Part shown: one piece after another, positions 18,037 to 45,840 of the stretch
Layout: each line of letters begins with the position of its first letter
Numbering within the stretch: the stretch's first letter is position 1
DNA from: an uncultured archaeon
GTDB taxonomy: Archaea > Thermoproteota > Nitrososphaeria > Nitrososphaerales > Gagatemarchaeaceae
Direction: 5' to 3'
DNA: 64,000 nt
NCBI GenBank assembly: GCA_963799775.1
Contig: CAWCYD010000002.1
Coordinates: forward strand, 192,001-256,000
Program-made: the position numbers and the translations under genes
The notes under the pieces: generated by a model
Databases searched by the model: none
The model's input: the letters and a program-made list of their open reading frames with translations, nothing else
What the model was told of the DNA's origin: nothing

Positions 18037-18070
18037 TAGCCCGTCCAGGATTCGAACATGAATGGGTTCT
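18037..18070 (-). repeat. att-like tRNA(Gln-type) 3'-end copy #8 (longest tRNA match; arm of the Lys-type family)
   Basis: TAGCCCGTCCAGGATTCGAAC is the reverse complement of GTTCGAATCCTGGACGGGCTA; followed by atgaatgggttct. Confidence 0.9.
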
Positions 18071-18614
18071 TGGTTGCTGAAGGAGAATTACGCCGATATG
18101 GACCGGCGAGGACTTCGAAGTCAGAAGAACCTCAAGTCCTAGCGCCCTTCAATACACGAACCCCGACTACTACGATTACAGTAATGACGACAACTAAGAG
18201 TTAGTCCGAAAAACCAAGAGGAAAGAAGAGATTCTCCAAAGTCAGGTCGGCAAACCGAAAGTGTTGTGCATGCCCGCCGCCAAGCTCGTAGAGGCTGTTC
18301 AGACTAGGGTCAGGAATCTGGTTTTGGATGGCTGAGATTCGACCACGGTCTGCCCGTCAAGACGCGTGCTGCGATTACTACGGCCATTATGATTACTGTG
18401 ATTACAACGATTAAGACTACTGTTGAGGAAGCAACCAACCCGCAATCAACGCAAGGGCCCTGACCGCACGAATATATCTTTGCTTTCGGTCAGGAATGCG
18501 ACTTTGAAGCGTTTTGAATCAGTTGCCCTACTCCCCCGCGATTCTCTCATGACTCCGTAATTCCCTCCCGATTGCCGTGCCCCACCACAACAGGTAGTGG
18601 TCAAGTGTGGCTAC

Positions 18615-18965
18615 TTAGAACCAGTCCGGAAAATATCACCTCCAGAAGAGTCCGGCCGCTCGCCAGGTTTCCACGCGCACGCGAAGTGTATCATCGCGAC
18701 GTAGTTCTTTTTCTTCTCCTCTCACCGGATCAGGAGCCTCCTGAACCTGTTGAGCAACGAGTGGGTCCTCTCGACGACCCATCTCCTCGCTCGGTATCCG
18801 GGCCCTCTCCCTCGTCGACTGGTCGACGCCCCTCCTGGCATGTGGCCCATGTATCCCCACGCCTCGACGAGCTCGTCTATCTCTGGCTCGTGGAAAGCAC
18901 GCTAGGCACTGTGATGACCGTCTCCACCGTCGCGATCCTCATGATGGTCTATCGTTTCCCGGCAA
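18615..18965 (-). mobile_element. IS5-family transposase remnant
   Basis: Minus-strand translation RWVVERTHSLLNRFRRLLIR*EEKKKNYVAMIHFACA with an internal stop; possible terminal repeat near 18618. Confidence 0.75.
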
Positions 18966-19266
18966 GATTCTTCGTGGTCGTAACGTTGGCGTGGGACTTT
19001 TCCTATCGGCATCGTTCGCTCTTGGGTTTCCGGTCAGCGTCCTCTCAAAGCTGCCGAACTTCCAGGTCACACCTTCGGTCTACAACACTGTGCTCTGGGT
19101 GAACCAAATCGAGTTCTTGGGCTGGCTTTACTTTGCGTCCGTCCTCCCTGATCTGTCTGCAATATTTCAGAGTGAAAGAGTCTGGCAAGAGTAACATCCA
19201 GGTGGACTATAGTCGCTAACTCTCACTGCAGGTGCTTTTAATGGACCTATTTTTAGCGGGCCCGGC

Positions 19267-20439
19267 TTGAACCGGAAGGGCGTCTGCTACGACGTCGGGC
19301 GTGTCCTTATGGATGGCAACTGGCGCCCCAAGTTCGACCCCAGGACCGTCCACCGGGAGCTGGGCATCATAAAGCACGACCTCCACTGCAACGCCGTCAG
19401 AATCCAGGGGCTCGACATCGATAGGCTCATGACCGCGAGTGAGGACGCCCTGTCACAAGGGCTGGAGGTCTGGCTATCTCCCGAGATGTGGGACAAAAGC
19501 CAGGATGAGACCTGCGAATACATCGCGAGGGCGGCGGAGCGGGCGGAGGGGCTCCGTCAACGGTGGCCCGGAAAGCTGGTCTTCAGTGTGGGCTCCGAGC
19601 TGAGCCTCTTCTCTCAGGGGATGATCGAGGGCAAAAACGTCTTTGACCGGATATCCCGTTCCTCGTTCTTTAGCGATATATCGGCCGGGACGTACAACGG
19701 CCCGCTCAATCTGTACCTGTCGAATCTGAGCGAGGCCGCGAAGAAGTCGTTCCGTGGGCCGCTCACCTACTTCTCCTTGCCGTTCGAAGCTGTCGACTGG
19801 AAACCGTTCGATTTCGTCGGGGTAGACCATTACAGGGACGCGCAGAACAAAGTCGCCTATGGTCGGATGATAAGCAAGTACAACGCATTCGGCAAGCCTG
19901 TGATTGTAGGGGAGTTCGGGTGCTGCACTTTCCGGGGCGCGGAGCTGCTCGGAGGAAACGGCTTCATGATAACCTTCGGGATGATTGAAGGCCTCCTCGG
20001 GCCAAACCAGAAGCTTCCCAAGATGTTCTTGGACATGGCGCATGTCCCGCCCCGAGCCGACGGGCACTACATCCGTGACGAGGAGCTCCAGGCACGCGAG
20101 CTGGTCGATCAGCTGGGGGTGCTCGACGCAGCGGGGGTTGAGGGCGCGTTCGTGCAAACCTTCGTGGTTCCTAACTCCCCGTACCGCTCGGACCCCAGGT
20201 ACGACACCGACATGGCGAACTTTAGCCTGGTGAAGAGCTTCCAGGAGGCAGAAACGGCGGAAGAGTTCAGGAGACAGACCATCCGTGGGGCCAGGGAAGT
20301 GATTGGGGTGGACCTCGACCCCCGCGTTCTGGATGGTTTTTCAGGTCGAATGGGCGAGCATGGAGTGACATATCCGGATCTGCCGTGGGAGCCGAAGGAG
20401 TCGTTCAGGGCGGTCGCAAGATACTACGCTGAGCACTAG
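19267..20439 (+). CDS. TIM-barrel glycoside-hydrolase-like protein
   Basis: KGVCYDVG, LHCNAVRI, SVGSEL, VGVDHY and IVGEFG motifs. Confidence 0.6.
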   Translation: MNRKGVCYDVGRVLMDGNWRPKFDPRTVHRELGIIKHDLHCNAVRIQGLDIDRLMTASEDALSQGLEVWLSPEMWDKSQDETCEYIARAAERAEGLRQRWPGKLVFSVGSELSLFSQGMIEGKNVFDRISRSSFFSDISAGTYNGPLNLYLSNLSEAAKKSFRGPLTYFSLPFEAVDWKPFDFVGVDHYRDAQNKVAYGRMISKYNAFGKPVIVGEFGCCTFRGAELLGGNGFMITFGMIEGLLGPNQKLPKMFLDMAHVPPRADGHYIRDEELQARELVDQLGVLDAAGVEGAFVQTFVVPNSPYRSDPRYDTDMANFSLVKSFQEAETAEEFRRQTIRGAREVIGVDLDPRVLDGFSGRMGEHGVTYPDLPWEPKESFRAVARYYAEH

Positions 20440-20486
20440 AATCAGCCTCCGAACCTTACTGGGCTTGCCGTCTTACGCCTCGGGAC

Positions 20487-21318
20487 TCAGGAACCGCTTG
20501 CTTTCAAGAAGGCGAGCAGCTCTGTGTTGACGGTATCCTTGAGGGTCGAGCACATGCCGTGAGGCGCGCCGGGGATCACCTTCAACGTGGCGCCCTTCAC
20601 TATCTTGGATGAGAGCATTGCCGAATCAGCTATGGGCACTATCTGGTCGTCGTCGCCATGAAGAACTAGCGTAGGCACGTCAAATTTTTTGAGATCCTCC
20701 GTGAAGTCCGTCTCGGAGAACTGTTTGATGCAGTCGTAGACCGCCTTATGTCCGGCCCACATCCCTTGAAGCCAGAAGGAATCGCGCAAGCCCTGGGAGA
20801 CCTTGGCGCCGGGCCTGTTGAAGCCGTAGAAGGGCATGCTGAGGTCCATTCCAGAACTGCGAGCGGTCTGCCAAGACGCCCGCGCGAATCTGATTGAATG
20901 CCTCGATGGGCAAGCCGCCAGGGTTGGAAGGGGTCTTCACCATGATCGGTGGCACCGCACCGATGAGGACCGCCTTGGCGACGCGCTTCGTCCCGTGTCG
21001 ACCTATGTAGCGGGCAACCTCACCGCCTCCAGTCGAGTGACCGACATGAACGGCGTCCTTCAGCTCGAGATGCTTGACGAGCTCCGCAAGGTCGTCAGCG
21101 TAGGTGTCCATGTCGTTGCCGTTCCAGGGTTGATCCGAGCGTCCGTGGCCCCGGCGGTCGTGCGCTATGCAACGATATCCTTGCGAGGCCAGGAACAGCA
21201 TCTGGTCTTCCCACGCATCGGCGCTGAGAGGCCAGCCGTGGCTGAAGACGACAGGCTGTCCCTTTCCCCAATCCTTGTAGTAAATCTGAGTCCCATCTTT
21301 CGTCTTAATCGTGGGCAA
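20487..21318 (-). CDS. cpo: non-heme chloroperoxidase-type alpha/beta hydrolase (frameshift near 20850)
   Basis: [37 protein letters not shown]. Confidence 0.85.
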
Positions 21319-21361
21319 GGCATCTCTAACTGGTGGGGTCTGCGTATTAACCGTGATGGGA

Positions 21362-21408
21362 GCAGGCCCATCGGGGCCCTTCCCTGAACGGGTTCTAAAA
21401 GTGGACTC
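21362..21408 (-). repeat. att-like tRNA(Lys-type) 3'-end copy (degenerate) + conserved arm
   Basis: gcaggcccatcggg-gcccttc-CCTGAAcggGTTCTaAAAGTGGAcTC; aligns with the sites at 22085 and 43580. Confidence 0.7.
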
Positions 21409-21484
21409 CCAGAAAGCCTGAGTAGATAATAGGAACTTTTAGAAAATAGGAATTCCTTTATAGTAGGAGTGTGTTATTGCTCCT

Positions 21485-21709
21485 ATGGCTCAAGAGGTTG
21501 TTGTCACAAGAAGAGGCCAGACGACCATACCGATGCCCATAAGGAAGAAGCTCGGAATACAGGAGGGCACAAGGCTGATGGCCGACACAGACGGGGATAA
21601 GGTGATATTCACAAAGATCCCATCCATCTTCGACCTATCTGGGAAGAGCAAGCTGACGACCGAGGAGGCCTTCAGACTCCTTGACGAGATGCGCGCATCG
21701 GAGGGTTAA
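21485..21709 (+). CDS. AbrB-family antitoxin
   Basis: VVTRRGQTTIPMPIRKKLGIQEG. Confidence 0.85.
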   Translation: MAQEVVVTRRGQTTIPMPIRKKLGIQEGTRLMADTDGDKVIFTKIPSIFDLSGKSKLTTEEAFRLLDEMRASEG

Positions 21710-21712
21710 CGG

Positions 21713-22084
21713 ACGCTCTTCGAGACTAGGTATTTTTGGGCTGTCCTTACGTCGAAGGATGCAGAGACCACGAAGAAACTCAAGGCAATCTTCGAAAAGG
21801 CCAAAACTCCCTTCGCGTCATCGGTCAGCATCTACGAGATATACAAACAGACGCTCGAACATGATGACAAGGCAGTGGCAGATCTCCGCACTCGTACAAT
21901 CACAAATGAATACACCATCGTCGACGTAAGTGCCGAGATAGCGGAAGAAGGAGCAAGGATAAGCCACAGACTGAGAATTCCCATGGCAGATTCGCTCATC
22001 ATGGCCACTTCCAAGAGTCTGCGCGTTTCCTGTGTTACAGATGATCCGCATTTTACTGAAGTAAAGCGCGTGTGGATAAGTTGA
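21713..22084 (+). CDS. VapC-like PIN toxin (no clear start codon)
   Basis: TLFETRYF...SIYEIY...PMADSLIMAT...VTDDPHF; stop TGA abuts the att at 22085. Confidence 0.7.
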   Translation, partial: TLFETRYFWAVLTSKDAETTKKLKAIFEKAKTPFASSVSIYEIYKQTLEHDDKAVADLRTRTITNEYTIVDVSAEIAEEGARISHRLRIPMADSLIMATSKSLRVSCVTDDPHFTEVKRVWIS

Positions 22085-22130
22085 GCGGGCCCGACGAGTC
22101 CGCCCCTGAACCGGTTCTCAAAGTGGATTC
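22085..22130 (-). repeat. att-like tRNA(Lys-type) 3'-end copy + conserved arm
   Basis: GCGGGCCCGACGag-tccgcc-CCTGAAccGGTTCTcAAAGTGGATTC. Confidence 0.8.
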
Positions 22131-22195
22131 AGAGTGAGACTGCGCCGTCCCTAGGGGCCGGCCTCTGGCCTTCGCATTCCTCACCAGATTGCCAG

Positions 22196-22585
22196 TTATG
22201 GATTGAGTAGGGCGACTGCACCTTCTATCTCTCCTACCTTTCGGATATCAAAGTCTGGGCGTGCCCCGACAAACGCGCATCTTCCGCCGGAAGCATTGAT
22301 ACTCAATAATGTGATCTTGTCGCGAAGGATTATTGCGGTGCGTGACGGTCCCAACAACTTGTCCGCCGTGTCGTCAATCCCCCGGACGACGGCCCAGCGC
22401 CTGGCCAGCAGTTCGACATCGCTCTTGTTCCGGAGCAGGCTCTCGCTTCCCGGCCGCGACCTTGTCGCTCGGATGTCTCCCTGGGAGCTGATAATCACGC
22501 AGAACATTATCGCGTCGTCCATCGAGCATATTCGCTCAGCAAGCTCAGACTCACCGACTTTCCCTGGTTCTGGTCTTGGATTCAT
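22196..22585 (-). CDS. roadblock/longin-like small protein
   Basis: ICSMDDAIMFCVIISSQGDI...RPG; resembles 49172..49562. Confidence 0.55.
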   Translation of the reverse strand: MNPRPEPGKVGESELAERICSMDDAIMFCVIISSQGDIRATRSRPGSESLLRNKSDVELLARRWAVVRGIDDTADKLLGPSRTAIILRDKITLLSINASGGRCAFVGARPDFDIRKVGEIEGAVALLNP

Positions 22586-22795
22586 TTTCCGAGCACTCTC
22601 TGCTTGCTAACCTTGACAGAGGCTCCAGAGTTCGTCAATTGGTTGGACTCCAGATTGCAACCTGCTCGTTGGCTAAAGCTGCGTTCTTGTCGGTCAACTC
22701 ATCAGGCGGAAATAGCAGGTCGTGATATTTACGTAGTCCGATTCAGTGCGACATGCTCGTCATGGTCCAACAGAGTTCAGATTGAGCTATTATTA

Positions 22796-22808
22796 GCGGG
22801 CCCGACGG
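22796..22808 (-). repeat. att-like tRNA(Lys-type) 3'-end copy upstream of the integrase
   Basis: GCGGGCCCGACGG, 60 bp before the integrase GTG. Confidence 0.75.
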
Positions 22809-22867
22809 TACGCCTGCCCGCACGAGTCGAAGCCCCGCCGTTATTAGGAGAAATCCCCCGGAATGGC

Positions 22868-24200
22868 GTGACCTCCAAGCCGCAGCTGTTCCCGAACAGC
22901 AAGTACAGACACCTGCTGGAAGACGAAGCCTTCGCCTCGTGGATAGAGAACATCGCAAGAGGAAGCAAGGTGAACGCCGAGGTCACACTGCGCAGAATCG
23001 GGAGGATCTGCATGCTCCTTCAGACGACGCAGAAGGACCTGGCCGTCATGTCCAAGGGAGAGGCTGGGGCCTTCCTGTTCAGGGTGGTCTCCCGCATGGA
23101 GAGCGACGGGAACAGGAGCTCGACCATCGCCGGGTGCGTCAAGCAGCTGAAGGGGTGGTGGCGCTTCAACGACCTCGAGGTGACGAGGCAGGTGAGGCTC
23201 GCCAGGGACGTGGGGGTGTACGACAACGAGCGCGTCCCCTCCCACCAGGAGCTTCACTCGATCTTCGAGCACGCTGACCTCCAGAAGAGGGTCGCCTGCG
23301 CCCTGATGGCGTTCTCCGGCGTCAGGCCGGGGGTGCTGGGGAACAGGGACGCGAACGACGGCCTGATGGTGTCAGACCTGCCTGAGATGGTGATAAGGAA
23401 AGGCGACGCGGGACAGGACAGCGTCGAGTTCCTGAAGGTGCCTGCCATGGTGATCGTCCGGAGGACGATCTCCAAGACGGGAAGGCAGTACATCTCCTTC
23501 CTGCCCGAGCAGGGGTGCGGCTACGTGCGGCAGTACCTGGAGTGGAGGATGCACGTCCTGAAGGAGAAGATCGAGGGTGCCTCCCCGTTGCTCACCGCCA
23601 ACCAGTTCAACCCCCGCTACATCGGCAGGTTCGTCAGGGTGTGCAACGTGAGCGACGCGGTAAGGCACGCGATCAGGGCCGCGGGGTTCGGCTGGAGGCC
23701 TTACGTCCTGCGGAGGTACTTCGACACGAGGATGATGGGCGCGGAGCAGGAGGGGAAGGTCATCAAGGACTACCGCGTGTTCTGGATGGGGCACACCGGG
23801 GACATCGAGCACGTCTACACGCTCAACAAGGGAAACCTCCCCGACGGACCTGCTCGAGGGGATGAGGCAGGCCTACGCGAAGGCCTCCGAGAAGCACCTG
23901 GCGACCCTGGTCCAGGCGAGCATAAGCAGGGACGAGGTCGTGAACACTGCGCGGGCCGAGGCGCTCAAGATGTTCGGCTACACGGACGAGGAGCTCCTGG
24001 GGGTCGGCGACATCACCCGGATCACGATGGAGCAGCTCCAGCAGCTCATCCACGATAGGTCGAAGCAGATGCTCGGGCTGAAGGAGGGGACGCAGAAGGT
24101 CGTGCCCGTCGCGGACCTCGAGCGCTGGATAGAGCAGGGGTGGGACTACAAGCGGGACCTGCCCGACGGGAGGGCCGTGATAGGGCTGAGGACTGCCTAG
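22868..24200 (+). CDS. tyrosine recombinase/integrase (frameshift near 23845)
   Basis: Catalytic set SGVR, ISK, PYVLRR (HxxR variant), WMGH, HVY; C-terminal extension in ORF 23862..24200. Confidence 0.9.
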
Positions 24201-24205
24201 GTGAC

Positions 24206-24425
24206 TCACGCGCGCCTGAGCAGCGGTCCTCTCGACGCTCCCTTCCTCTCGAGTTCTCTTTCCAGCCGCTGCAGATAGTGCGGGATCATGAGCCTCGGCC
24301 TTCCTGAAGGGCAGCGAGTCGGGTTCAGCGAGCAGGTCGGACAACACTGGGCTGTCAGGGGACAGCTTCTCCCTCAAGCGCTCCTTGAAGGCGCGCATGT
24401 CCACCGCATTATTCTCGAGCGTCAT
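24206..24425 (-). CDS. small hypothetical protein, copy 1 (frameshift near 24290)
   Basis: MTLENNAVDMRAFKERLREKLSPDSPVLSDLLAEPDSLP...IPHYLQRLERELER, near-identical to 28193..28414. Confidence 0.65.
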
Positions 24426-24759
24426 CTTCAGATTCATGAAAATGTGCGGCAGACGCTTTTAACGGGAGATTGGGGCCGATGCGCAGCCCTCTACTTTAGG
24501 CTCGTCAGTGCATGCGATTTTCAGCTTGATTGATACGACCGTTCGGCTCTTCTTGCATCAAAGGCCACGCTGAGGTTTCGATTTTCAACGCGCTTAAAAA
24601 TGACAATCATGACGATAATGACATGGGTTGCAAGACCCACTTCGCGCGAATAGCTGCTCAGTTCCAGCTCGACGTCGAAGAGGAGCTTCCACAATCTTGC
24701 CAGCCAAGACCGAACAGTAGCCTACGCAGACAGTTTGTCTTGGCAGCGTGGAATCCAAT

Positions 24760-26561: not shown

Positions 26562-26584
26562 AAAACTAAAATACTATTTAAGTA

Positions 26585-26731
26585 TTATATTTTTATGCAA
26601 CATAGAAGCTCCAGATTCCACCTGAACAGTTCGGCGACCTGGGGTTGCGTAAAGCCGGCTGTCCTGGACAGCTCGAGCAGTTCTTCCCTCGAAAGCAGGC
26701 CGTATGTGAGAAGACCCTCCAACTCGGCCAT
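26585..26731 (-). pseudogene. 48-aa ORF, probable truncated N-terminus of an AbiEii-like toxin
   Basis: MAELEGLLTYGLLSREELLELSRTAGFTQPQVAELFRWNLELL, 4 bp after the AbiEi-like gene, ending in AT-rich sequence. Confidence 0.4.
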
Positions 26732-26735
26732 ACGC

Positions 26736-27525: not shown

Positions 27526-27531
27526 TACTCG

Positions 27532-28118: not shown

Positions 28119-28192
28119 GTCAGTATCCCATTCACTACTTTGTAAAAACGATTGCTGATTGTGTCGATTTCTCGGCAGCGAGCCGGTGCCGT

Positions 28193-31156: not shown

Positions 31157-31249
31157 TAATGCACAAGGGTTGTGCATTAGCCCAAAAGCCACAATGCACA
31201 GGGGTTGTGCATTATTCCAAGTGCAATAATGCTCCAGGGTGGAGCATTA
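31157..31249. repeat. three 23-bp palindromes at an exact 35-bp period
   Basis: taatgcaca-agggt-tgtgcatta; caatgcaca-ggggt-tgtgcatta; taatgctcc-agggt-ggagcatta. Confidence 0.85.
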
Positions 31250-31341
31250 GCATCGATCCGAATGTCCGGTGCTCCTAGGGCCCACGTACTCTTCGAAACT
31301 CGACACGCCAGGGGCTCCTCTGGGGTCAAGGTGGACCTGCG

Positions 31342-34423: not shown

Positions 34424-34541
34424 AGGCTGACCACGACAAAGGCGAAATCACCCAGTTTGGGATACGCTCGCGGATCGCCCGTCAACGGGACAGGTGGGAT
34501 GCTCGCAGAAGATAAGGCGAAGGAAAGCCACAGCCACTAGC

Positions 34542-35517
34542 ATGTATGCCGCGCTAGACCTGCACGAGAAATCGATACAGTGCGTCCTCAAGGACGACGC
34601 TGGAAAGGTGATGAGGGAGTCGAAGGTGGCGAAGGACGAAGAAAAGATACTGGAATTCCTCGACGGCACAAATGCGAGCGTCGTCATGGAGTCCGGGTAC
34701 AACCATCAGCACATCCGCGACGTGCTGAAGGAGAAGGGATACGACGTGAAGGTCGCGCATCCGCTGATGGTGAAGGCCATCGCCTACGCAAAGGTGAAGA
34801 CGGACAAGGTCGACGCGAGGACGCTGGCGGACCTGCTGAGGGCGGACATGATACCCGAGTCCTACGTGCCGGACGAGAAGACCAGGGAGGTCAGGGACCT
34901 CGTCGAGGAGGAGGCATCACCTCGTCGAGACGCGCACCGGGTTCAAGAGCAAGGTGAAGGCGGAGCTCGCGAAGCGATGGGTGAAGCACGAGGGCGACGT
35001 CTTCACGCGGGAAGGGAGGAAGTTCCTGAGGTCCCTCCACATCGACGCGGTGGACGACTACATGGACACCATCGAGTTCCTGGACGGGAAGATCGGGGAG
35101 CTCGACCTGAAGGTGAAGGGGGTCGCCCTGCAGGACAAGTATGCGAAGCTCCTCGTCACGATACCCGGCGTCTCCCACTACTCGGCCCTCCTGATATCGA
35201 GCGAGATCGCAGACGTGAACAGATTCGCCGACCACGAGCACCTCTGCTCGTACGCAGGCCTCGTGCCAGGGTTGAGACAGTCGGCGGACAAGAGCCACTC
35301 GACACCCAACAGGACGAGGAGCGTGATGCTGAACTGGATAATGGTCCAGTGCACGCGCGTCCACGTGAGGTGGTGCGACTCCTCGATAACGAAATTCTAC
35401 GTGGAGCTCGCGAAGAGGAGGGGCGAGAAGGTGGCGATCGTGGCCGCAGCGAGGAAGCTCATGCGGGCCATGTACATCATGCTGAAGGAGGAACAGACCT
35501 TCAGGCTGGACGGCTGA
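34542..35517 (+). mobile_element. IS110-family transposase (frameshift near 34905)
   Basis: DEDD domain (ALDLH, VMES, KTDKVDA) and Tnp20 domain (TIPGV...SYAGLVP..RQSA). Confidence 0.9.
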
Positions 35518-36027
35518 GCAAAAAGAGCTAGAGCCCGTTAGGTTCTTGCGCCTCAGAGCGCGTGGAACAGGTTGGGCCACAGGCTACCGCGAAAGCCACA
35601 ATGCTCCAAAGAGAGCGAATGGGAGAATGCCCTCCGTCCAGCATAAATATGCAGAACACGACGACATGGGAGACCTTCAGGCTGGACGGCTGAGCAAAAA
35701 GAGCTAGAGCCCGTTAGGTTCTTGCGCCTCAGAGCGCGTGGAACAGGTTGGGCCACAGGCTACCGCGAAAGCCACAATGCTCCAAAGAGAGCGAATGGGA
35801 GAATGCCCTTCCGTCCAGCATAAATATGCAGAACACGACGACATGGGAGACCTTCAGGCTGGACGGCTGAGCAAAAAGAGCTAGAGCCCGTTAGGTTCTT
35901 GCGCCTCAGAGCGCGTGGAACAGGTTGGGCCACAGGCTACCGCGAAAGCCACAATGCTCCAAAGAGAGCGAATGGGAGAATGCCCTTCCGTCCAGCATAA
36001 ATATGCAGAACACGACGACATGGGAGA
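35495..36027 (+). repeat. three tandem 176/177-bp copies of the IS110 3' end (candidate bridge/seek RNA region)
   Basis: Units start at 35495, 35671 and 35848; each closed by the GCTGGACGG/CCGTCCAGC stem with internal hairpins. Confidence 0.85.
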
Positions 36028-36603: not shown

Positions 36604-36720
36604 CGGGTGCCGCTCACGTATGTACGCGATATAATACTTGGGTGGCTTCGCCGGTATGTATGCCGTTATATCCCTACCTCGTCAGGAAGCTCGTTGATGG
36701 GTCGATATCGGAGATTTACT

Positions 36721-39700
36721 TTACATGGGTTCCGGACCGGCCTGACTGGAGGCATTAGCGTCTGCCTTTTCCTGATTTGCTGACCGCATCGTGTTAGCCA
36801 GAGCCTTTATTGCGGAATAAGCGCCATTCTGGAAGCGCTCGACCATATGGAGTCTCTCGGCAGGGTCCGAGATTCCTAGTATTCTCAATACTCCATCATC
36901 TAGCTCCAGCCTGAAAGAAGCAGGGGATTCGAGTTGCTCCAATAATGAGGGGACTTTGCGCTTGCTGAGTTTTTCCCAGAGAGCCTCTATTGCTTGAAAG
37001 TCCTTTTCAGTGAGTTTAGAGACATCAGGAACTGGGCACCTATCCATCGCATATTCTTCGAGATCCATGTATGTTCCTCTGGTAATGCGTGCTCTGCCAA
37101 GATAGGAGACTATGAATGGAGACGAGTTGAACCAGAGACATAGGAATTTCTCTTGTGCCGCGTTGGAAATTCCGGTGAAGTATTTTCCTTTGATCACTAC
37201 GAACGCAGGTTGTTCGTGTCTAACACAAATGAATGCCGTCCCCTTTGCAGCCCAGTCCACTCGCCACATCATTAGCAATCTTGAAGAGCCTCTAGTGACC
37301 ATTTGACTCCATCCCTTCCGGAGTCTTCTCAGAATTTGGTCGGCTTCGTGTGGGGGGTAGTAGGTTTGGATTAGTCTTTCTATTAGGGGTGTTATTTCGG
37401 CAACGCAGAAATCTGATTCGTCAGAGACGTCGAGAGATTTCAGGTAGGAAAAACGCCTAATCGCTGGGACCATGATTGACGTGGGTATCTCGTAAACGGA
37501 ACTTGTGACTCGGTCTTGGGCCACAACTTTGTCTGCGGTCGTCCTGCTAGCAAATAATCTGTCAGTTTCTTGCTTTATGGATCGCTGCCTTGTGCGAGAT
37601 ACGATGACAGCTTTGGGCCCATAACTTGAAAAGTTCCTTCCACTGAATACACATTCAGTTGCTTCGATTCCAGCAGTGGTAGTCAGCTGACCAAATTGGA
37701 TTAAGGGGATGGTCGACTTGTCGATGAGTTTTTGGAGCTGTGCGTTTGCCAAATCGTATTCTTCGAGGAGGCTGAGATAAAGTCCCGATAGGGTTCGGGA
37801 TTCCGGCAGCAATTCCTGTTGGGGAACGACGCGGCGAATTGAAAAATGGTCTTGACCTTCCTTGGATAGCTTGAGCTGGTCCACCAACTTGCTGAGGTCC
37901 CTGCTCTGTCCACTCATCGGGTGGTTTCCGCGTTCCGATTATCATGAAATCTCTGTCAGGAGCAGGTTTCTGTTTGCTGGCGACCAATAGACACTCCGTC
38001 AGACTCGTGTCTTCGCTATATGCGGCTCTTCCAAGGCTGAGGAAAATAGCTTGGACGGAGTAATGGGTTAGGAAATACCGCACGAATGGGTGAAATGATT
38101 TGGCAGTGAACGTGGTAAGAGGAAGTACCGCCCCCACTCGTCCTTTGGGATTGAGGAAGATGTCAGCGAGGAAAAGAAAGAACAGTTGTTGGCTTGGCTT
38201 GAAGAAGATTAACGGTTTGTATTTAGCGATGCGGGAGAAGCTCTGAGCGAGACCGTCTCTATATCGCGGATCCATGTTATCCCAAGAAGTAAAGGGCGGG
38301 TTCATTATCAGGACGTCTACATGGTTCACGGCGAATCCTTTCGCTTCAGAACGGCGCATCCTTACTGTTCTCGTTCTCGCCGGAATCTCAAGATTATCGA
38401 AATCTGATTCCAGGGTAGTTTGGTGAAATTCGGATGGCAAGGCCTCGCCAGTTGTTGGGACGATAGAGCCTGGGCGAAGCAATGTGGAATCGGTGGTGCC
38501 TATCCGAACGTGGTCAGTCTCCTTCAGTGGTTGCTGAATGGCCAAGTTGACCGCAGCCAAATGACCTGAAAACGCCATCGCATCTATTCCGGTGATTTGT
38601 TCCTCTACGAACTTCCTGTGGAGGTCGAATTGGTCACCTTTGGCCAAGGCTAGTTTGCGCTTGTAGGACGCCACCAGGAGCGTCCCACTACCGCAAGCTG
38701 GGTCCATGATGGAATCGTCGGCAGTTTCGACGACGCAGGCAGCGAGCAATGCTGCGGGATTGGGATTGGTGTAGTGGGCTCCTAGTGGCTTGCGGATATC
38801 GAGGGGAATTAGACTCTGAAAGACTTGGCCGGCCAAGTCGATTGATCTTAGCTTTGGGGAGAGGGACATGATGGCTGTAGCGACATCCCTACAAGCAAGT
38901 TTAGACTTCTGGCCTTTGAATAACTGTGAGACTTTTATCCCATAAACGGGTTCATAGTCTTGTTCCCTGACTCGGTCGAAGTATACCTGAAGCTTCTCGG
39001 GAGAGCCCGCATCTTCGAGGGTGATGCTCTTGTATTTTCCATCGCCCTTCCTTTCAGATTCCCGCGATAGCAATGAATAGAATAAGACCTGGTTGACGAA
39101 AAGGAAAGCTGCGCCTAGCCTGAGAATTCGAGGTCTTTGCTCCTTTGGAATTTGGGCAGCCAATACAGAACGGAAGAAATGATGTCCGCCGAATTCCTTT
39201 TCGAGCTCTTGATGAGGAACGCCCCTCAATGTGTCGCCGAGGTTGAGCGCGGCGGCTCTGAGTAGTCTCCGGGCTTCAACTTGGGTCGGCTCCGCTCTCT
39301 TCTGGACTTCGGCAAATTCACCACGAAGGGCTTTGGATATTTCTTCAACAAGTTCTTCGAATGACGTTAAGATTCTTGGAATCTCATCATGAAGTGTTGT
39401 GCGAGCGAGGATGTGAAGTATGAAATTGTGCTCATGTTTTGCGGGATAAACGACCGCGAATACCTCGCCCAGCTCTTTTCCGGTGAGTTCCTCGGTGAGA
39501 GGGATTTGCTGAGAATACTCCTGCGCAGTGACCAAGGCGTCGATTTCGTGGTTCATGCCAAGCTTGGCGCTCAAAATATGAATCAGCCCATTGTAGACGG
39601 CGATGTCCGGCTTCTTGATTCGATGTTCGCCACCTAGCGAGAGATGAAAGACCGGGCTGGGGCCTTCGGCATTGAAACCCTTGTCGCGCAATGCAGCCGC

Positions 39701-39739
39701 GAGGCGCCCGGTCCAGGGGTCTTCGGTTCGACTTGACAT
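36721..39739 (-). CDS. type IIG-like restriction-modification enzyme / N6-adenine methyltransferase (frameshift near 37900)
   Basis: N-terminal KPD..SAK nuclease-like motif, GAHYT, DPACGSG motif I, NPPF motif IV; C-terminal TRD-like part in ORF 36721..37917. Confidence 0.8.
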
Positions 39740-39926
39740 TGCGGAGTTATGCGCCACAGTTGGCTCGCAAGAGAATGATATAAAATGAAAGTTTGTTTGA
39801 AAGCTGAAGATCATTGGAAATTGTTAGCGGGAGAGAAAGAGGGTTTGGGAGAAAAATCGAAGATTTGTCGCCCCCGAAGCGCCGGAGGCGCGAGGGCTCT
39901 CTTTCATTCAAAGGTAATGTGACAGG

Positions 39927-41012
39927 TCAGACTGCGCCTAGGTTTTGGAGGAGCTGCGAGAGAGAGGTTTTTTCTCCCTGGTCGTTCGACGCCGCAAGTC
40001 GCTTCCACGCGTCATTCTCAAACTTAGCAAGGTACTTGTCCTTTCTCTTCCCGTGATATGTTGAACTTGCTTGGCTTGAACCTTGGAAGTAATTTATTAT
40101 CGGAAAAACACTATTGGGGTTGGGAAAGACTTTCCAAGCATACTCGTAAATCTCATCATCGAAGTCTCCAATGTTGTACCTTCCGAGAAGTTCCAAGGCC
40201 ATGGCCTTTTCACCAGAAGATCTGGCGTCGTCCAGAATTTGTTGTTTTAGTAATTGTGAATATTTCTTCTCGTGAGCCGCTTCCAGTTTGTTAGACGTTC
40301 GATACAGTGCATTGACAAAGTCAGAAATTGGTTTCTCTTGGACCGGAATTTCTTTGTTCGACACCAGGCCGAAGACAAGATCGATCATTTGTAAATCGTA
40401 CTTACTCTCGGCAAGTAGCTTACAAATTGCTCTGACAGCTAGGAAGCGAGTGTTGGGATTTTCAAGTTTTGGGTAATAGTATCCTTCAGCCCTCTTCCGA
40501 ATTTCGTTCAAATTAGCGTCCCTCAGAATATCCTTTGGTTCACTAGCTCTCCTCAAGTTGCTGATCAGTTTGGAGTAAATCCTGAGGGTTCTGACCGAGA
40601 TTCGATGGTAGACCGAAACCCCTGTAATGTCATTCAGTATCTTCGTCCAAGATTCAATTTCGATGGGGACCTCATCGTTTAGTTTCTCGCGGACCTTTTG
40701 GAATAATGGAATGCCGCTGATAATGCTCTCGTAATCTTGCTTTGTGGGATTCTCGAGCAGTCGATTTGCCAATTCCGTCAATTCAAAGGTGTCCCTCCGT
40801 CCATGCAAGAGACCGTACCGAACGAGCGATGCTATCTTCTGCCTGAACATCCCACTGTTTGGCGATTTGTGTCCCTCGGCCAGTGCGAAGGCTATCATCC
40901 TGCTACGCTCGACCTTTCCGCCGAAGTCATGAGCTATGTCAGATATCATTTTCCGAGCTTGTTCGATGTCGATGTCTGGATAGAGAAACTGCGTCTTTGG
41001 GATTTGGCCCAT
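39927..41012 (-). CDS. hypothetical protein (N-terminal wHTH-like, C-terminal helical)
   Basis: 361-aa ORF; GHKSPNSGMFRQKIASLVRYGLL...ELTELA. Confidence 0.65.
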   Translation of the reverse strand: MGQIPKTQFLYPDIDIEQARKMISDIAHDFGGKVERSRMIAFALAEGHKSPNSGMFRQKIASLVRYGLLHGRRDTFELTELANRLLENPTKQDYESIISGIPLFQKVREKLNDEVPIEIESWTKILNDITGVSVYHRISVRTLRIYSKLISNLRRASEPKDILRDANLNEIRKRAEGYYYPKLENPNTRFLAVRAICKLLAESKYDLQMIDLVFGLVSNKEIPVQEKPISDFVNALYRTSNKLEAAHEKKYSQLLKQQILDDARSSGEKAMALELLGRYNIGDFDDEIYEYAWKVFPNPNSVFPIINYFQGSSQASSTYHGKRKDKYLAKFENDAWKRLAASNDQGEKTSLSQLLQNLGAV

Positions 41013-41129
41013 ACTGAAGTATCGACTCGAAAACTGCGGCTATTTATGGTTTCACTGAAGATGAACAGTCAACCGTCACTGGAAAGGCACAGTGCATTTA
41101 TATTGTGGCCGGCGACACCAAATGGTAAC

Positions 41130-41354
41130 ATGGGGGAAGGCAACCCTTCTCGTCGAAGCAAGTTCCCAGTTTCAAGGAGGCGGCGCGATCGGGAATGGGC
41201 CTACGAACTATTGACCCTCTACGTCGTTTCGTTCGGAGTGGCGACGGCAATAATCCTATCCGGAATTGATTCTTTATTGAAGATAGTATTGATTCTAGTC
41301 TTCTTGGTTGGATTGCTCGCAGCTTCTCTAATCATGGTTGTAGTTCGAAGGTAG
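41130..41354 (+). CDS. small two-helix membrane protein
   Basis: Two TM helices; TTTATA box upstream. Confidence 0.45.
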   Translation: MGEGNPSRRSKFPVSRRRRDREWAYELLTLYVVSFGVATAIILSGIDSLLKIVLILVFLVGLLAASLIMVVVRR

Positions 41355-41760
41355 TGGGTGCCCAACGGGACAACCGCGGACAACTCCGGAGGAGACCTCC
41401 AGAATAGGAGCAAAGACCATTGGAGCATAAATATCAAGGCGGTATACCATTCCGTTGATGATGAAGCCTGCGCACGACAAAAGCAGGTTCCATACGGATA
41501 ACCGGATGAATCCCTTCCGACTCAGTTGACTTTGATTATGTGACGCAAGATCCGGTTATCTGCCCGAATTTGAATGTAATCAAGTGTAAGAACCTGCAAC
41601 CGCACCTATCGCTACGCAGCAAATCCGCCGGACCCTGATGATGCCACGACGGGATCCGGAACGCATCTCATGTTGCCAGGCATTCATAATGTGTTTTTAG
41701 TAGGTCAGATTCCCCTAATCTCTTTAGCCGCATCCCGTTGAGGCTTATACAGGGGGCAGG

Positions 41761-43071
41761 TTGGAACATCCTTCTTCCGGCAAGAAAGAGGACTCCGAGA
41801 GTTCAATTGACTCGTTGGGCAGCTTCTACCAAATAATCCCGAGACGCGACTGGCCAGGGTTCGCGACTCCATCACTGAAATCCGACTCGGGAAACAAAAC
41901 AGTGTTGTTTCTGGGTGCTGGGGCATCCGCATGTGAAGTAGTTCCGGTTCAGGGTCGGCTCTTGCACTACGCAGAGAAATATTGCTCTCCCAAGTCGAAA
42001 ATCGGACTCGATCTAGACTGGAAGATTGTCGTCAAATTCCTGCAGCGCTTGGCTCCGGGCGTACCTATTGACCGAAGGCAGCTAGAAGACTGCCTCACCT
42101 TTCTGGACAAGGCTGAAGTCTCGCAGGAGGTGATAGCAGGATTCGGTCGACTTGGCCTCGTCGAGCCGCGCCGCGCGCTCATGAACTGCATTTCACATAC
42201 AATTGCGGCCGCGCAAAGGGGACAGCTCGACCTTGAGGGGCAGGAGCTCGCCTCCCGGCGTCGCCAAACGCCGATGGTAAAATTGGGTAAATTCCTCCGG
42301 AAAGAGGCGAAGACCGTACGTGGCAGGTGGTCCATCGTCTCAACCAACTGGGACACGACCCTCGACTTCGCTCTAGGCGGGAAAGCGTCCTCGGTAATCG
42401 ACTATTGCACTTACACGAATCCATGGGAGCGTTACTACAGAGACCTCGAAGACGAGAGTGACCGTTCCCGAACTCGTGTAAGAGAGGTTCCTTCAATCTG
42501 GAAGCGTCCGCTTGGCCGCCCAACGGTCAAACTTCTGAAATTACATGGCTCACTCAACTGGCTGTGGTGCCCGACCTGCAGCCGTCTGTTCGTGAGTTCG
42601 ACTCACAATATTGGCTTGCGTGGCACGGTCAGGAGCGGCCTAAAGCCGTACCGACGACGATTCTATTGTCCCGAATGTAGAATCATCGCTGGTAGTGATT
42701 ATCGCGCTCCAATCCTGCGTGAGGTCCTGGTGACCCCGACGATGCTGAAGCGCCTCGACATGGTGCATCTGCGAATGATTTGGTACAACGCGCTAGTCGA
42801 GATTGCGGAGGCCAAACGCGTAATCTTCGTCGGATACACCGCACCTTTAGCCGATTTTGAGTTGCGTTACATGCTTGCGAAAGCCTTCTCTGTTCGGCAA
42901 ACTCGGCCAAAGGTGTATGTCATTTCACGAGGCCAGGAAGACCCAGAACAACTGAAGAAACTGCAGGAGCTAAAGGAGAATTACGAGGGGCTCTTAGGTG
43001 ATAGTGTGGAGTCGAGAGGATATGGTGTCGACGGCTTGGTAGACCGTCTCGTAAAGGGCGACGCACTATAG
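41761..43071 (+). CDS. SIR2-family protein with zinc-binding insert
   Basis: VLFLGAGAS, IVSTNWD, LLKLHGSLNW-CPTC..CPEC, IFVGY...DFE. Confidence 0.85.
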   Translation: MEHPSSGKKEDSESSIDSLGSFYQIIPRRDWPGFATPSLKSDSGNKTVLFLGAGASACEVVPVQGRLLHYAEKYCSPKSKIGLDLDWKIVVKFLQRLAPGVPIDRRQLEDCLTFLDKAEVSQEVIAGFGRLGLVEPRRALMNCISHTIAAAQRGQLDLEGQELASRRRQTPMVKLGKFLRKEAKTVRGRWSIVSTNWDTTLDFALGGKASSVIDYCTYTNPWERYYRDLEDESDRSRTRVREVPSIWKRPLGRPTVKLLKLHGSLNWLWCPTCSRLFVSSTHNIGLRGTVRSGLKPYRRRFYCPECRIIAGSDYRAPILREVLVTPTMLKRLDMVHLRMIWYNALVEIAEAKRVIFVGYTAPLADFELRYMLAKAFSVRQTRPKVYVISRGQEDPEQLKKLQELKENYEGLLGDSVESRGYGVDGLVDRLVKGDAL

Positions 43072-43082
43072 CGGTCAGTGAA

Positions 43083-43113
43083 TGGCAACCAGGGTTCAAA
43101 TCCCTGCGACCGC
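43083..43113 (+). repeat. isolated tRNA 3' half (Gly-like), plus strand
   Basis: CAGGG-TTCAAAT-CCCTG-CGACCGC: complete T arm plus acceptor 3' strand, no D or anticodon arm. Confidence 0.7.
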
Positions 43114-43269
43114 GTCCGCCTTGATTTGAACACACATATGTAGGCCAACATCCTGCCTTCGACATCTGGCGGGTTGGCGCTTATATTCAAGGCAAGTAAT
43201 CTATTCCGCATGCCCAAACCTACCGAACCGCAGTCGAAGAGCAACGAGGGGATTCGGACTCGAGCGGAG

Positions 43270-43309
43270 GCGGGCCCGACGGGATTCGCTTAATGTTCTA
43301 AGCGAATCC
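43270..43309 (-). repeat. att-like tRNA(Lys-type) 3'-end copy with 11-bp hairpin
   Basis: GCGGGCCCGACGGGATTCG, 18/19 identical to the tRNA-Lys end at 45725; ggattcgctta-N6-taagcgaatcc. Confidence 0.85.
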
Positions 43310-43361
43310 AGCCGTGACGTACGGGAGTTAATGCGGAGCCGGACTCGACTCGTGGGGAATT

Positions 43362-43526
43362 CTAGTGAGTCGCCCTTTGTTCCAGCTTTGCAATCCGTCT
43401 TTCAAAGCCTTCGAGCCGCTTGACCACGCTCGTCTCGGTTTCATGGTGGCCATAGACGTGCTCTGTGAGTTCTTTGAAGAGCTCGGCCAGATTTGCCATC
43501 TCCTCCTTTAGTTGTTTGTCTGCCAA
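43362..43526 (-). CDS. 54-aa coiled-coil protein
   Basis: MADKQLKEEMANLAELFKELTEHVYGHHETETSVVKRLEGFERRIAKLEQRATH; GGTGAGG upstream. Confidence 0.55.
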   Translation of the reverse strand: MADKQLKEEMANLAELFKELTEHVYGHHETETSVVKRLEGFERRIAKLEQRATH

Positions 43527-43579
43527 TCTTATTCCTCACCCCTCATGATTCCGACCCTGCTATAGGTTTGACCTGTGTT

Positions 43580-43626
43580 GACAGCCCGACGGGCCCCGCG
43601 CCTGAATAGATTCTGAAAGTAGATTC
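43580..43626 (-). repeat. att-like tRNA(Lys-type) copy + conserved arm
   Basis: gacaGCCCGACGGG-ccccgcg-CCTGAAtagaTTCTgAAAGTaGATTC. Confidence 0.75.
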
Positions 43627-43956
43627 CTCCTTTTTGTCGGGGAGGTGCGCATCGAGCCTCTCGAAGAACGAGTGAGTGCCTGGGGCGAACCCGAGAGCCG
43701 TCATCCTGTGTAGGTTCGGGTGCTCGAGCTGCAGCATCGTCCCCTCACGTTCCCCTTCGAAGCTCCCATCGAATCACCCCATCCTCCCCAGACGGAAGTC
43801 CGGGTCGGGGCTCGACTCTCAACTCATGTTCGAAGACACGCGGAGGGGCCCACTTTAGGATCTTACCCGTGACTGACCCCCGACTTCCTCGGACGAGAGA
43901 CCAGGTCACAAAGGAGGATTCGCCAACTCTATATTCTCCCAGCCCCCCGCCGTGCC

Positions 43957-44556
43957 GTGATGGACTCTCGACCTGAAGGAGGCTCGAGAAGGGCCAGGGC
44001 GTTGGTGGCCGTCGGGCTTTTGGCCCTGGTGCTGATCGTGGCCATAGGTTACGGCGTGTATACCTCCACCCCGGTTCGCACGAGTTCGTCCGTCCTCACC
44101 AGCCCTGTCTTGAGCACGAGCAGTCTTGCGACGGAGGCCACGCTATCTTCGAATGGTTCGGCTTCGCCCTCCGGCTTAACGATAACTTACATGTACGCAG
44201 ACATAGATGACCCAGGCGCGCCTTATCCTTACAGCAACGGCTCATCGATAGCCGATGAGAGCACATTCACAGGAGGTTCAGGACAAGAGATCTCGGTACT
44301 GTTCCAGGTGATCTACCAAGACTGCTCGCTTGGGTGCCCGAACACCGTGACCAGAGTGACCACGCCGACGCCGGGGTTCGAGGTCACTGGAACCTCCCCC
44401 GCGGTCGCAGTTCCCTTCCAGCAGTGTGGAATCTGCACCGATGGCGACTCGTCTATCGTCACCTCGACGGGGGAGGAGATCGCGATTGCGGTGAATGTCA
44501 TGCCTCCCTCGACGCCTTACTCAGGGACCCTGACTCTCGTCGCAGAGACAGGCTAG
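43957..44556 (+). CDS. secreted/membrane-anchored protein
   Basis: Basic N-terminus, TM helix, S/T linker, beta-rich Cys-containing domain. Confidence 0.65.
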   Translation: MMDSRPEGGSRRARALVAVGLLALVLIVAIGYGVYTSTPVRTSSSVLTSPVLSTSSLATEATLSSNGSASPSGLTITYMYADIDDPGAPYPYSNGSSIADESTFTGGSGQEISVLFQVIYQDCSLGCPNTVTRVTTPTPGFEVTGTSPAVAVPFQQCGICTDGDSSIVTSTGEEIAIAVNVMPPSTPYSGTLTLVAETG

Positions 44557-44938
44557 ACATGCTGGATCTCGGCCGGCCGTCAGCCTCTTACCCAGGCTGA
44601 GTCGGCGAAGCTCTCGACGCTCCGATAGACGGCGTCGGCGGGTGGGGAGTATGGCCCCTTTCTTATCTGACGAAGCGCACGCCGACCGCTCGCGCGGCCT
44701 TCAGGTCGTTTATCCTGTCACCGACGAAGAGAGAGTCCTTCAGGTCGGCTTGGAGGCTGTCGAGCGCCCGCCATCCCACCCTGTCTGCCGTCTATCACAG
44801 CCTGAGTCATGTACCAACCAGCAAGCTCCGACATCCATGGGGCGAGTCATATCTTGCACACCCAGTTCGCAGCCTGCTCCCGGGAGTTGAACGCACCTGC
44901 TCGTTGATACGATGAGATGAGATCTCGGCTAATTATCA

Positions 44939-44959
44939 GCGGGCCCCCACGGGATACGA
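44939..44959 (-). repeat. att-like tRNA(Lys-type) copy (degenerate)
   Basis: gcgggcccccacgggatacga versus tRNA gcgggccctacgggattcga. Confidence 0.65.
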
Positions 44960-45155
44960 TTAAACAATAAGCGACTACTAATCGTACAAGGGAGCTCAGC
45001 TTTGGTTCAAGTTCCTGCGATATCGCACCTAGGGCCATTTCTTTTCCGAGGCGCTGTCTGGTTTTCGTTGGTCTAGGTGCGAGCAGGGATTTCGCTCCGA
45101 AAGACGACTGGACAGAAACTATTAATCACCGAAGTCTTCGATTTTCTCACACACA

Positions 45156-45655
45156 ATGGTCACTCAACCTCCTGCCGCCCCTGCGTCTGACTCGGAAAAA
45201 GCTGCTGAGAAACCGAGGATAGCGAGGAGGACGATAGCAATAATCGCGATAGTTGTTATCGTCGCGGTCGCTGGACTCGGGTCCTCTTGTCAGGCTCTTC
45301 TTCGTCCCTCAGGCAGAGCACGACGGTCTACGTCGACTCCTCGAGCACCTGCAAGGCCTTGACCACCACGTTTTCCTGCACGGTCCTCCTAGACGCCAAC
45401 TCGGGAAGTACGGTGACCGCGTCTATGGTAAAGTCAATGTCGATAAACGGCACAAGTGTTACTCCTACTGTGGGAACGGCGGGCAAGTCAGTCAGTGTTG
45501 CGGCTAGCCTGCCCATTGAAGGGCCGGGCTGCATTTCTGGCTGCCCCCCCCAGGCTGGCATCAACAACACTCCCAAGGAGGGAATCGTGGTCGTCGACCT
45601 CAACGATGGGACAGAGGTATCGGTGACGCTCGGCGCGGGCGGAATCATCAGATGA
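45156..45655 (+). CDS. secreted/membrane-anchored protein (frameshift near 45285)
   Basis: TM helix in ORF 45156, beta-rich domain in ORF 45287..45655. Confidence 0.6.
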
Positions 45656-45725
45656 GATCTCGACCAATCTGCCTCTGAGAACACCTATTCAGTTAACTTC
45701 CAAGAATAGTTGAGTGCAAAAAAGG

Positions 45726-45840
45726 CGGGCCCTACGGGATTCGAACCCGCGTCGGGGGTCCGACGACCTGACCCTCGGGTTAAAAGCCCGATGCTCTATC
45801 CTGGCTTCTCTCCCCTTTCAGGGAACTGAGCTAAGGGCCC
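45726..45840 (-). tRNA. tRNA-Lys(UUU) with two non-canonical introns (~21 nt in the D loop; ~19 nt at the variable loop/T-stem junction)
   Basis: GGGCCCT acceptor/AGGGCCC-G, D stem GCTC/GAGC, anticodon arm TCGGG-CTTTTAA-CCCGA, intact TTCGAAT T loop, T-run terminator downstream. Confidence 0.9.

Follow-up and report, generated by a model that had tools for sequence, protein, structure and literature searches.

The DNA analysed here, hereafter the window, is a stretch of 64,000 nucleotides (nt; C2:192001-256000) from the genome of an uncultured archaeon of the Nitrososphaerales, whose assembly comprises 2.47 Mb in three contigs with 58.8% G+C and a completeness of 81.7%. Between about 3.4 and 45.8 kb, the window is most likely occupied by an array that grew by accretion at its anchor, the 3' end of a tRNA-Lys(UUU) gene with introns. 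This tRNA-anchored array of integrative cassettes can be regarded as a variant of the known tandem tRNA integration with integron-like traits. As put forward in the initial annotation of this DNA, attachment-type sites derived from the 3' end of a tRNA delimit modules, one of which contains an integrase. In addition, in three comparisons with relatives, segments of 4.9, 21.2 and 9.8 kb proved to have been gained or lost, and the breakpoints lie exactly in the cores of such sites.

The anchor gene is read on the minus strand from 45840 to 45726, and its 3' end constitutes an attB-like core at 45725-45737. It displays an acceptor stem (GGGCCCT/AGGGCCC), a perfect anticodon stem-loop (TCGGG-CTTTTAA-CCCGA) and a T arm (GCGGG-TTCGAAT-CCCGT), and is interrupted by two non-canonical introns. 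Scripted excision of 22 nt in the D loop and of 19 nt before the T stem, according to one explicit splice model, gave a canonical 74-nt tRNA-Lys(UUU) whose exons would correspond to 45840-45825, 45802-45770 and 45750-45726; a brute-force splice search with ARAGORN accepted thousands of models and was uninformative. The gene was missed by ARAGORN at default settings, which found zero tRNAs in the whole window, and Rfam reported nothing for it at the gathering score, the tRNA model giving 24.9 bits on its 3' part, below the threshold of 29. With intron search, ARAGORN found only 37 tRNA genes in the whole genome, several of which were given introns of implausible length; probably, many of its tRNA genes contain non-canonical introns and have been modelled wrongly. 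A full-length, eukaryote-type topoisomerase IB gene (Topoisom_I_N and Topoisom_I domains, 45976-47538) adjoins the tRNA-Lys gene.

Six sites on the plus strand had initially been assigned to this tRNA, at 21362, 22085, 22796, 43270, 43580 and 44939, and their coordinates and spacings (723, 711, 20474, 310, 1359 and 786 bp) were all borne out. The 13-nt core, GCGGGCCCGACGG, is present exactly at 22796 and 43270, and the tRNA copy at 45725 differs from both by a T at position 9 (12 of 13 positions equal). Without mismatch, GCGGGCCCNACGG occurs in the whole genome only at 22796, 43270 and 45725, always on the plus strand and within 23 kb. The 43270 copy equals the tRNA-Lys 3' end at 18 of 19 positions, in agreement with the first count, and a search with this 19-mer allowing up to three mismatches gave two matches for 0.01 expected. 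The exact core at 22796-22808, whose left flank GAGCTATTATTA resembles a common cassette-end motif, and the core at 43270-43309, followed by a second type of arm with an 11-bp inverted repeat (GGATTCGCTTA/TAAGCGAATCC), are the left and right attachment sites of a 20.5-kb element. The site at 44939-44990, recognised by reading, consists of a degenerate core with a 1-nt insertion, GCGGGCCCCCACGGGAT, and an 8-bp inverted repeat.

The three other sites share a non-tRNA arm, found at 21383, 22105 and 43601 with zero to two mismatches (0.00 expected in the window; none of 100 shuffles reached three). Alignment with the flanks showed that this arm is part of a sharply bounded unit of about 48 nt, made of the core, then GGCCCGCC, which forms an inverted repeat of 8-9 bp with the core, then CCTGAACAGGTTCTCAAAGTGGATTCC. 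The armed unit at 21362-21409 (degenerate core GCAGGCCCATCGG and P'-type arm) is the left border of a vapBC cassette, the one at 22085-22130 (core GCGGGCCCGACGA, one mismatch to the 13-mer) is the left border of a 711-bp cassette, and the last lies at 43580-43627 (degenerate core GACAGCCCGACGG). By reading, the unit is non-coding, with stop codons in its variants and a variation without 3-nt periodicity, which rules out the arm as coding sequence. Two other identities were tried for the arm and rejected: as a tRNA remnant (anticodon arm, split-tRNA half or loop-deleted T-stem pair), it gave short suggestive matches to tRNA-Lys and tRNA-Arg and no cloverleaf by reading, and as a C/D-box RNA, it has a C-box-like GTGATG or ATGATG before only two of the six genomic copies.

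All six 48-nt units of the genome are on the forward strand. Three are in the window, and the other three are on contig C3, at 1227115, 1229279 and 1236837, downstream of a tRNA-Arg(TCG) gene that sits beside an IF-2B-family gene and whose 3' end, GCGGGCCCGGCAGG, is matched by their cores. The 43270-type site recurs as well, at C3:1228490-1228560, with 82% identity and conservation on either side; its core resembles tRNA-Lys in the window and is of the tRNA-Arg(TCG) type on C3. Because these three units and the second copy of the 43270-type site match tRNA-Arg(TCG), the sites do not form a purely tRNA-Lys family as first proposed; judged from the sequences, several site families are involved, all of them used at tRNAs whose acceptor stem is of the GGGCCCG type. 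A third type of arm was found at C3:1229955, in the same tRNA-Arg(TCG) array (position 6955 of locus L001). This array also contains a 1.4-kb module, bordered by an armed unit and the 43270-type site, whose sole gene encodes an FtsZ/tubulin-family protein (L001 4311-5357, C3:1227311-1228357). A third array is located at tRNA-Arg(CCT) (locus L005, C3:44001-56000), with cores TGGCGGGCCCGGTGGGA at L005 2014, 2980 and 7617.

Loci of relatives were then compared with the window. In the window, the vapBC cassette consists of vapB (AbrB/MazE-type antitoxin, 21485-21709) and vapC (PIN domain), which together span 21485-22084 on the plus strand; no stop interrupts the vapC frame between 21710 and 22084, and the GTG start found in locus L046 reads ACG here. 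The segment 21447-22094 is 86% identical to L046 733-1379 and the homology ends inside the core 22085-22094. In L046, a 43270-type arm follows the end of the cassette, and 43270-43627 of the window is 81% identical to L046 1370-1720, so that the neighbours of vapBC differ between the assemblies. In another locus, L041, homology starts exactly at 21362. The segment 22098-43282, which comprises the 711-bp cassette and the integrase element, has no counterpart in L046, L061 and L074, and since L046 joins the end of vapC to the 43270-type arm, it is extra DNA between two cores. In the same way, L071 shows the left flank of the site at 13128, a core, and then the right flank of the site at 18037; three cassettes (13141-18049) are thus extra in the window. 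On C3, the unit at L001 6279 is followed by a PIN cassette; in L065 this cassette directly abuts tRNA-Arg, and this genome has 9.8 kb more than L065 between the core at L001 6955 and tRNA-Arg. Finally, a cargo of a short-chain dehydrogenase/reductase (SDR) and TetR genes (4261-6088) lies between Gln-type sites in the window and is 94% identical to L091 4066-5890, where its borders are an armed unit and another Lys/Arg-type core. The vapBC cassette, the 43270-43627 module, the C3 PIN cassette and the 13128/18037 junction are those cases in which, as in integron arrays, a same cassette occurs in different contexts and the sites are the points of exchange.

The 48-nt unit was also sought outside this genome. 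With at most one mismatch, no match was obtained in 400 other genomes sampled from the class; the same pattern gave six forward and no reverse matches in this genome, and a reversed control pattern gave none. Viral contigs gave no match either. Contigs of soil and peat metagenomes yielded 75 loci, 53 of which have a G+C-rich core upstream of the pattern match, with 41 distinct 57-mers and the consensus TAGCGGGCCCGACGGGGCCCGCCCCTGAACAGGTTCTCAAAGTGGATTCC. With one genome per species, 23 loci were retrieved, including eight from five archaeal metagenome-assembled genomes that have the full unit; the other 15, bacterial and without core, were taken as chance matches. Strand and spacing were counted in 44 non-overlapping loci totalling 168 kb. 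Here, 52 cores are on the strand of the unit versus five on the opposite one, for a mean of 9.5 on both strands together in shuffles. Two or more same-strand cores are present in 12 of the 44 loci, and 12 of 19 spacings measure 634-974 bp; five sites are found in 3.8 kb of L021, and the arrays of L023 and L065 end at a tRNA-Arg(TCG) gene. Upstream of the cores, a T-rich end (at least six T in 12 nt) is found in 23 of 52 cases against a background of 3.8%, and a GCTTATT-like sequence accompanies 16 of the 52 cores. Glyoxalase-like proteins, cupin, methyltransferase, MarR and vapBC are among the cargo of these arrays.

The 20.5-kb element (22809-43269) lies between the exact repeats at 22796 and 43270, which are 20,474 bp apart, and has a lower G+C content than its flanks. 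It contains a tyrosine integrase of an archaeal family of about 435 residues (22868-24200, plus strand, in two frames as assembled), whose GTG start at 22868 is 59 nt past the end of the core at 22808, close to the 60 bp first estimated. Pfam gave no match at E<=0.01 for the protein of the window itself. A set of 567 homologues was retrieved at E<=0.001, typically with 430-445 residues, the best being 92% identical; several are named site-specific integrase or have a precomputed PF00589, and the homologue of L052 matches PF00589 at 2.1e-10. In the alignment, the R, YxxR, H and Y positions (R241, R370, H397, Y405) are nearly invariant and a C-terminal extension is seen, which continues in another frame in the window. 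A profile search of solved structures matched only XerA (4a8e), with an E value of 0.0055. Homologues, conserved residues and the XerA match all place the protein among the tyrosine recombinases, and the direct repeats with an integrase beside one of them are those of tRNA-targeting non-partitioning (pNOB8-like) elements.

An open reading frame (ORF) running through 22796 and one of 27 codons running into 43270 had suggested a partitioned, SSV-type integrase. This candidate was rejected: seven of eight aligned homologues start at the residue of the GTG at 22868, one having an upstream extension, and the 27-codon ORF has no counterpart in the homologues. Because most homologues start where the gene of the window starts, the enzyme is, as far as its relatives tell, a non-partitioned tyrosine recombinase. 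Paralogues adjoin tRNA-Met and tRNA-Ala on C3, and a further copy with its own tRNA-Ala-type site is nested in the tRNA-Arg(CCT) array as an element of another specificity. In L091, an integrase of this family is located 137 nt from a core. Five PF00589 recombinases exist elsewhere in the genome, none of them in the window, in the tRNA-Arg(TCG) array or at tRNA-Gln.

The other cargo of the element includes a DUF6036 nucleotidyltransferase with a helix-turn-helix protein, ArsR, an Mrr-type nuclease, an N6-methyltransferase and a SIR2-like protein, for which PADLOC gave generic methyltransferase, SIR2 and nuclease-domain matches only. Three tandem 35-bp repeats (31158-31262), each with a short inverted repeat (AATGCACA...TGTGCATT), could be the iterons of a replication origin. 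An IS110-family insertion (34485-35673) is 99.7% identical to two copies on C3; behind it, a 177-bp piece of its own end is repeated three times in tandem (35454-35983, with a partial copy to 36027).

The left part of the array is made of Gln-type sites. Eight sites were found from 3424 to 18037, all on the plus strand and with at least two types of arm; the core TAGCCCGTCCAGG is exact at 3424, 6376, 8050, 13128, 15479 and 17247 and a variant is present at 4166. Their cassettes contain vapBC (3482-4133), the SDR and TetR genes, two paralogous copies of MarR with an alcohol dehydrogenase, an ABC transporter and mazEF (17365-17950). The two MarR and zinc-alcohol-dehydrogenase cassettes (6462-8062 and 15624-17259) are 77% identical and each ends at a Gln-type core; the dehydrogenase of the first copy is split (7002-7643 and 7688-7987). 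As first noticed, tRNA-Gln is absent from the window: the real tRNA-Gln(CUG) was located at C3:783577-783674, where one 2.5-kb module and one further core copy were found. The search for an integrase paralogue beside it gave none.

At the last Gln-type site (18037-18087), 21 nt match the tRNA-Gln 3' end and are followed by an arm conserved in L071. The initial annotation regarded this site as a hybrid that marks the joining of a Gln-type and a Lys-type array. The joining stands, as both types form one continuous same-strand array with no tRNA-Gln between them. Misassembly at the junction is argued against because L071, an independent metagenome contig, shows it too, with homology on to 18665 and a Lys/Arg-type unit further on; short contigs of public sequencing runs hold no piece across 18-21 kb and are uninformative on the assembly there. 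The hybrid is overstated. The flank indeed shares 12 of 14 nt with the Lys/Arg arm, by reading, including a short GGTTCT-containing motif, and there is no match beyond these 14 nt; since it is identical over about 38 nt in L071, it is best seen as the conserved arm of a family of its own.

The same annotation held that a single recombinase family serves the Gln-type and Lys-type sites and that the site at 18037 arose by fusion of the two arrays, which we regard as unlikely. Besides the 12/14 match itself, GTTCT-containing motifs are found by reading 26-30 nt from the core start in the armed, 43270-type, 18037-type and one other Gln-type arm, the 4261-6088 cargo occurs between both site types, and both are interleaved in the window, in L071 and in L075, where an armed arm is followed by a Gln-type arm about 60 nt further on. 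Nevertheless, the motif comparison was made after seeing the data, the 18037 flank has its own arm family, and no integrase adjoins any Gln-type site. The sole link between the two site types is the indirect one given by the 4261-6088 cargo and L091.

From these data, the array probably formed as follows. Integrative DNA would enter as a circular element that carries the same short core as its target, site-specific recombination taking place between the two cores. The core is a copy of the last ~13 nt of a tRNA whose acceptor stem reads GGGCCCG (Lys or Arg), or of tRNA-Gln for the second core type. Every entry would leave the tRNA intact and shift older material outward, giving a same-strand row of cores in which the arm of each core is supplied by the module to its right. 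Position 9 of the core is a T in the tRNA and a G in every distal copy; the crossover would therefore fall within GCGGGCCC. One module is the 20.5-kb element with its own non-partitioned tyrosine integrase, and the others are cassettes of one or two genes (toxin-antitoxin, regulators, small enzymes) that lack an integrase; one of their ends retains the conserved 48-nt core and arm, and the opposite end is often T-rich. Exchanges between internal cores would add to repeated integration at tRNA 3' ends. An integrase of the ~435-residue family, encoded here or acting in trans, presumably catalyses these exchanges, and the small cassettes may leave the array in circular form. A circle released between two cores of one type could carry along sites of the other type, which would explain the interleaving of Gln-type and Lys/Arg-type sites.

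At the level of single sites, some points are weaker. The 13-mer with up to two mismatches is not above chance in the window (six matches versus 3.86 expected; 21 of 100 shuffles reach six), and two of these matches (10224 and 63898) are outside the initial list. The cores at 21362 and 43580 differ from the 13-mer at three of 13 positions and are recognisable through their arm only, while the site at 44939 aligns only with the 1-nt insertion and was not recovered by mismatch searches. Several observations weigh against this accretion model. The inverted repeat of the unit shows no compensatory changes by reading. L046, L061 and L074, being near-identical, amount to a single observation, and, because the unit is absent from the 400 genomes and the viral contigs, its carriers form a narrow lineage and are maybe not independent. 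No circular or excised form was seen in the public runs, which consist of short contigs only and of which X5 and X7 hold small shares of sequence; the joints that they contain (such as 22808 to 22099, and 22130 to 21481 in X7) equally fit other array orders in relatives. As for the enzyme, no integrase was found beside the Gln-type sites of the window, at the real tRNA-Gln or among the modules downstream of tRNA-Arg(TCG). Its profile matches four ORFs in three of the 75 metagenome loci, which makes the link between integrase and unit thin, and the integrases of the window and of L091 are not oriented alike with respect to the core. It is also out of frame as assembled, with one extra base at 23845/23846 beside a C run. 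Contigs of all four public runs that cover this position have one letter fewer, and a contig of run X1 is one letter shorter at 20848, in an alpha/beta-hydrolase gene (20487-21318) that is split into two frames. Since these contigs lack the extra letter, both frameshifts are probably assembly indels; together with 24292, where three runs are one letter shorter, they suggest scattered single-base indel errors in the assembly.

Alternatively, the small modules could be eroded leftovers of formerly full-length integrase-bearing elements, immobile after the deletion of their integrases, and the arrays would then record a history of passive decay and not an active system. The degenerate cores at 21362, 43580 and 44939 and the lack of an integrase in most arrays fit such a view, as do the loss of integrase after integration and the scattered partial tRNAs described for archaeal elements and Prochlorococcus islands in passages of earlier work (PMC8371274; preprint 10.1101/2020.12.28.424599). 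However, random erosion would leave neither a sharp-bordered 48-nt unit, present as 41 distinct copies with unrelated cargo, nor a narrow spacing of 0.6-1 kb, and would not give one cassette different neighbours with homology that stops in a core, which makes this explanation rather improbable. That the unit serves chiefly as a signal for expression, or as a small structured RNA of the terminator or processing-hairpin kind, is very improbable: it is non-coding and its G+C-rich inverted repeat of 8-9 bp often follows a T-rich stretch, but indel breakpoints fall in its core, the core varies with the tRNA nearby (like Lys in the window and like Arg on C3), the repeat lacks compensatory variation and no Rfam family was matched at the gathering score.

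Two further segments of the array are of note. The 711-bp cassette has a 129-residue ORF on the minus strand (22196-22585) without family match. A 1.15-kb stretch (19277-20414) with a 390-residue ORF, for which Pfam and PADLOC gave no match, has a 96% identical copy in the tRNA-Arg(TCG) array, at C3:1233203-1234352. The segment 19302-20366 is missing from one contig of run X1, and three runs have loose ends at 19276 and 20414/20417 in other contexts; this stretch is probably an unclassified insertion sequence.

The closest known systems are archaeal tandem tRNA integrations. Sections of two papers describe arrays that arise when a single integration site is used repeatedly, and thaumarchaeal attachment sites down to 8 bp in length (PMC6563490, PMC8371274). 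According to the same sections, pNOB8-type and thaumarchaeal elements target the tRNA 3' end, are bordered by short direct repeats and have their integrase gene outside the attachment site, as is the case here. Unlike what these sections report, most modules of the present array are one- or two-gene cassettes that lack an integrase and have a common 48-nt site, Gln and Lys/Arg cores are interleaved, and exchanges also occur at internal sites. SSV-type "suicidal" integrases are likewise archaeal tyrosine integrases with tRNA-gene targets, whereas the attachment site is here outside the integrase gene. The tycheposons of Prochlorococcus, as presented in parts of a preprint (10.1101/2020.12.28.424599), are tRNA-anchored islands in which successive integrations push older elements outward and partial tRNAs and degenerate elements are scattered; these elements differ by their size of 10-20 kb and by their integration and replication modules, and these parts mention no conserved short site around sub-kilobase cassettes devoid of integrase such as the one found here.

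Integrons and clusters of attC sites lacking integron integrases (CALINs) are also alike in several respects. Excerpts of a paper on archaeal integrons (PMC9668308) describe same-strand arrays of small cassettes with one site each that contains an imperfect inverted repeat, a frequent toxin-antitoxin and restriction or methylation cargo, and many arrays without nearby integrase; in the portion of its text that was searched, neither Thaumarchaeota nor tRNA is mentioned. By analogy, the function of the array may resemble that of an integron or a CALIN. On the other hand, an integron has an IntI-type integrase with an adjacent attI and Pc promoter, and such an arrangement was not found here. The anchor is a tRNA gene with a topoisomerase IB gene beside it, no attI adjoins the integrase gene, and the sole integrase of the array is of another family than IntI and lies 23 kb from the anchor. 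At least the vapBC cassette has, by reading, a TATA-like box before its start. Integron attC sites have an R''/L''-L'/R' structure and a GTTRRRY core. The present sites copy tRNA 3' ends, and the 48-nt unit has inverted repeats and, by reading, no GTTRRRY. A literature search of limited coverage found no prior description of tRNA-anchored cassette arrays. What goes beyond the descriptions cited is the conserved 48-nt site around unrelated sub-kilobase cassettes without integrase, the narrow range of cassette sizes, the exchanges at internal sites and the two interleaved core specificities.

These features open a bolder possibility, which we put forward tentatively: a soil and peat lineage of Nitrososphaerota may possess a tRNA-anchored functional analogue of the integron. 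Its cassettes of one or two genes, at least some with their own promoter, would carry an attP-like site of ~50-75 nt, in which a T-rich end precedes a tRNA 3'-end core that is followed by a conserved arm. A tyrosine integrase other than IntI would act in trans to capture, excise and shuffle them at tRNA-Lys, tRNA-Arg and tRNA-Gln genes as well as at internal sites, the core specificities being interleaved by multi-cassette circles. Read conservatively, the precise empty-site comparisons provide a well-documented case of tRNA accretion in Nitrososphaerota. In practice, the 48-nt unit is a marker for such arrays in metagenomes, and copies of attachment sites seeded by tRNA genes can reveal tRNA genes with non-canonical introns. 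If the cassettes are mobilised in trans, these abundant uncultured soil archaea would have a gene-capture platform independent of integrons, and this would explain how toxin-antitoxin, regulatory and small metabolic genes are exchanged among them.

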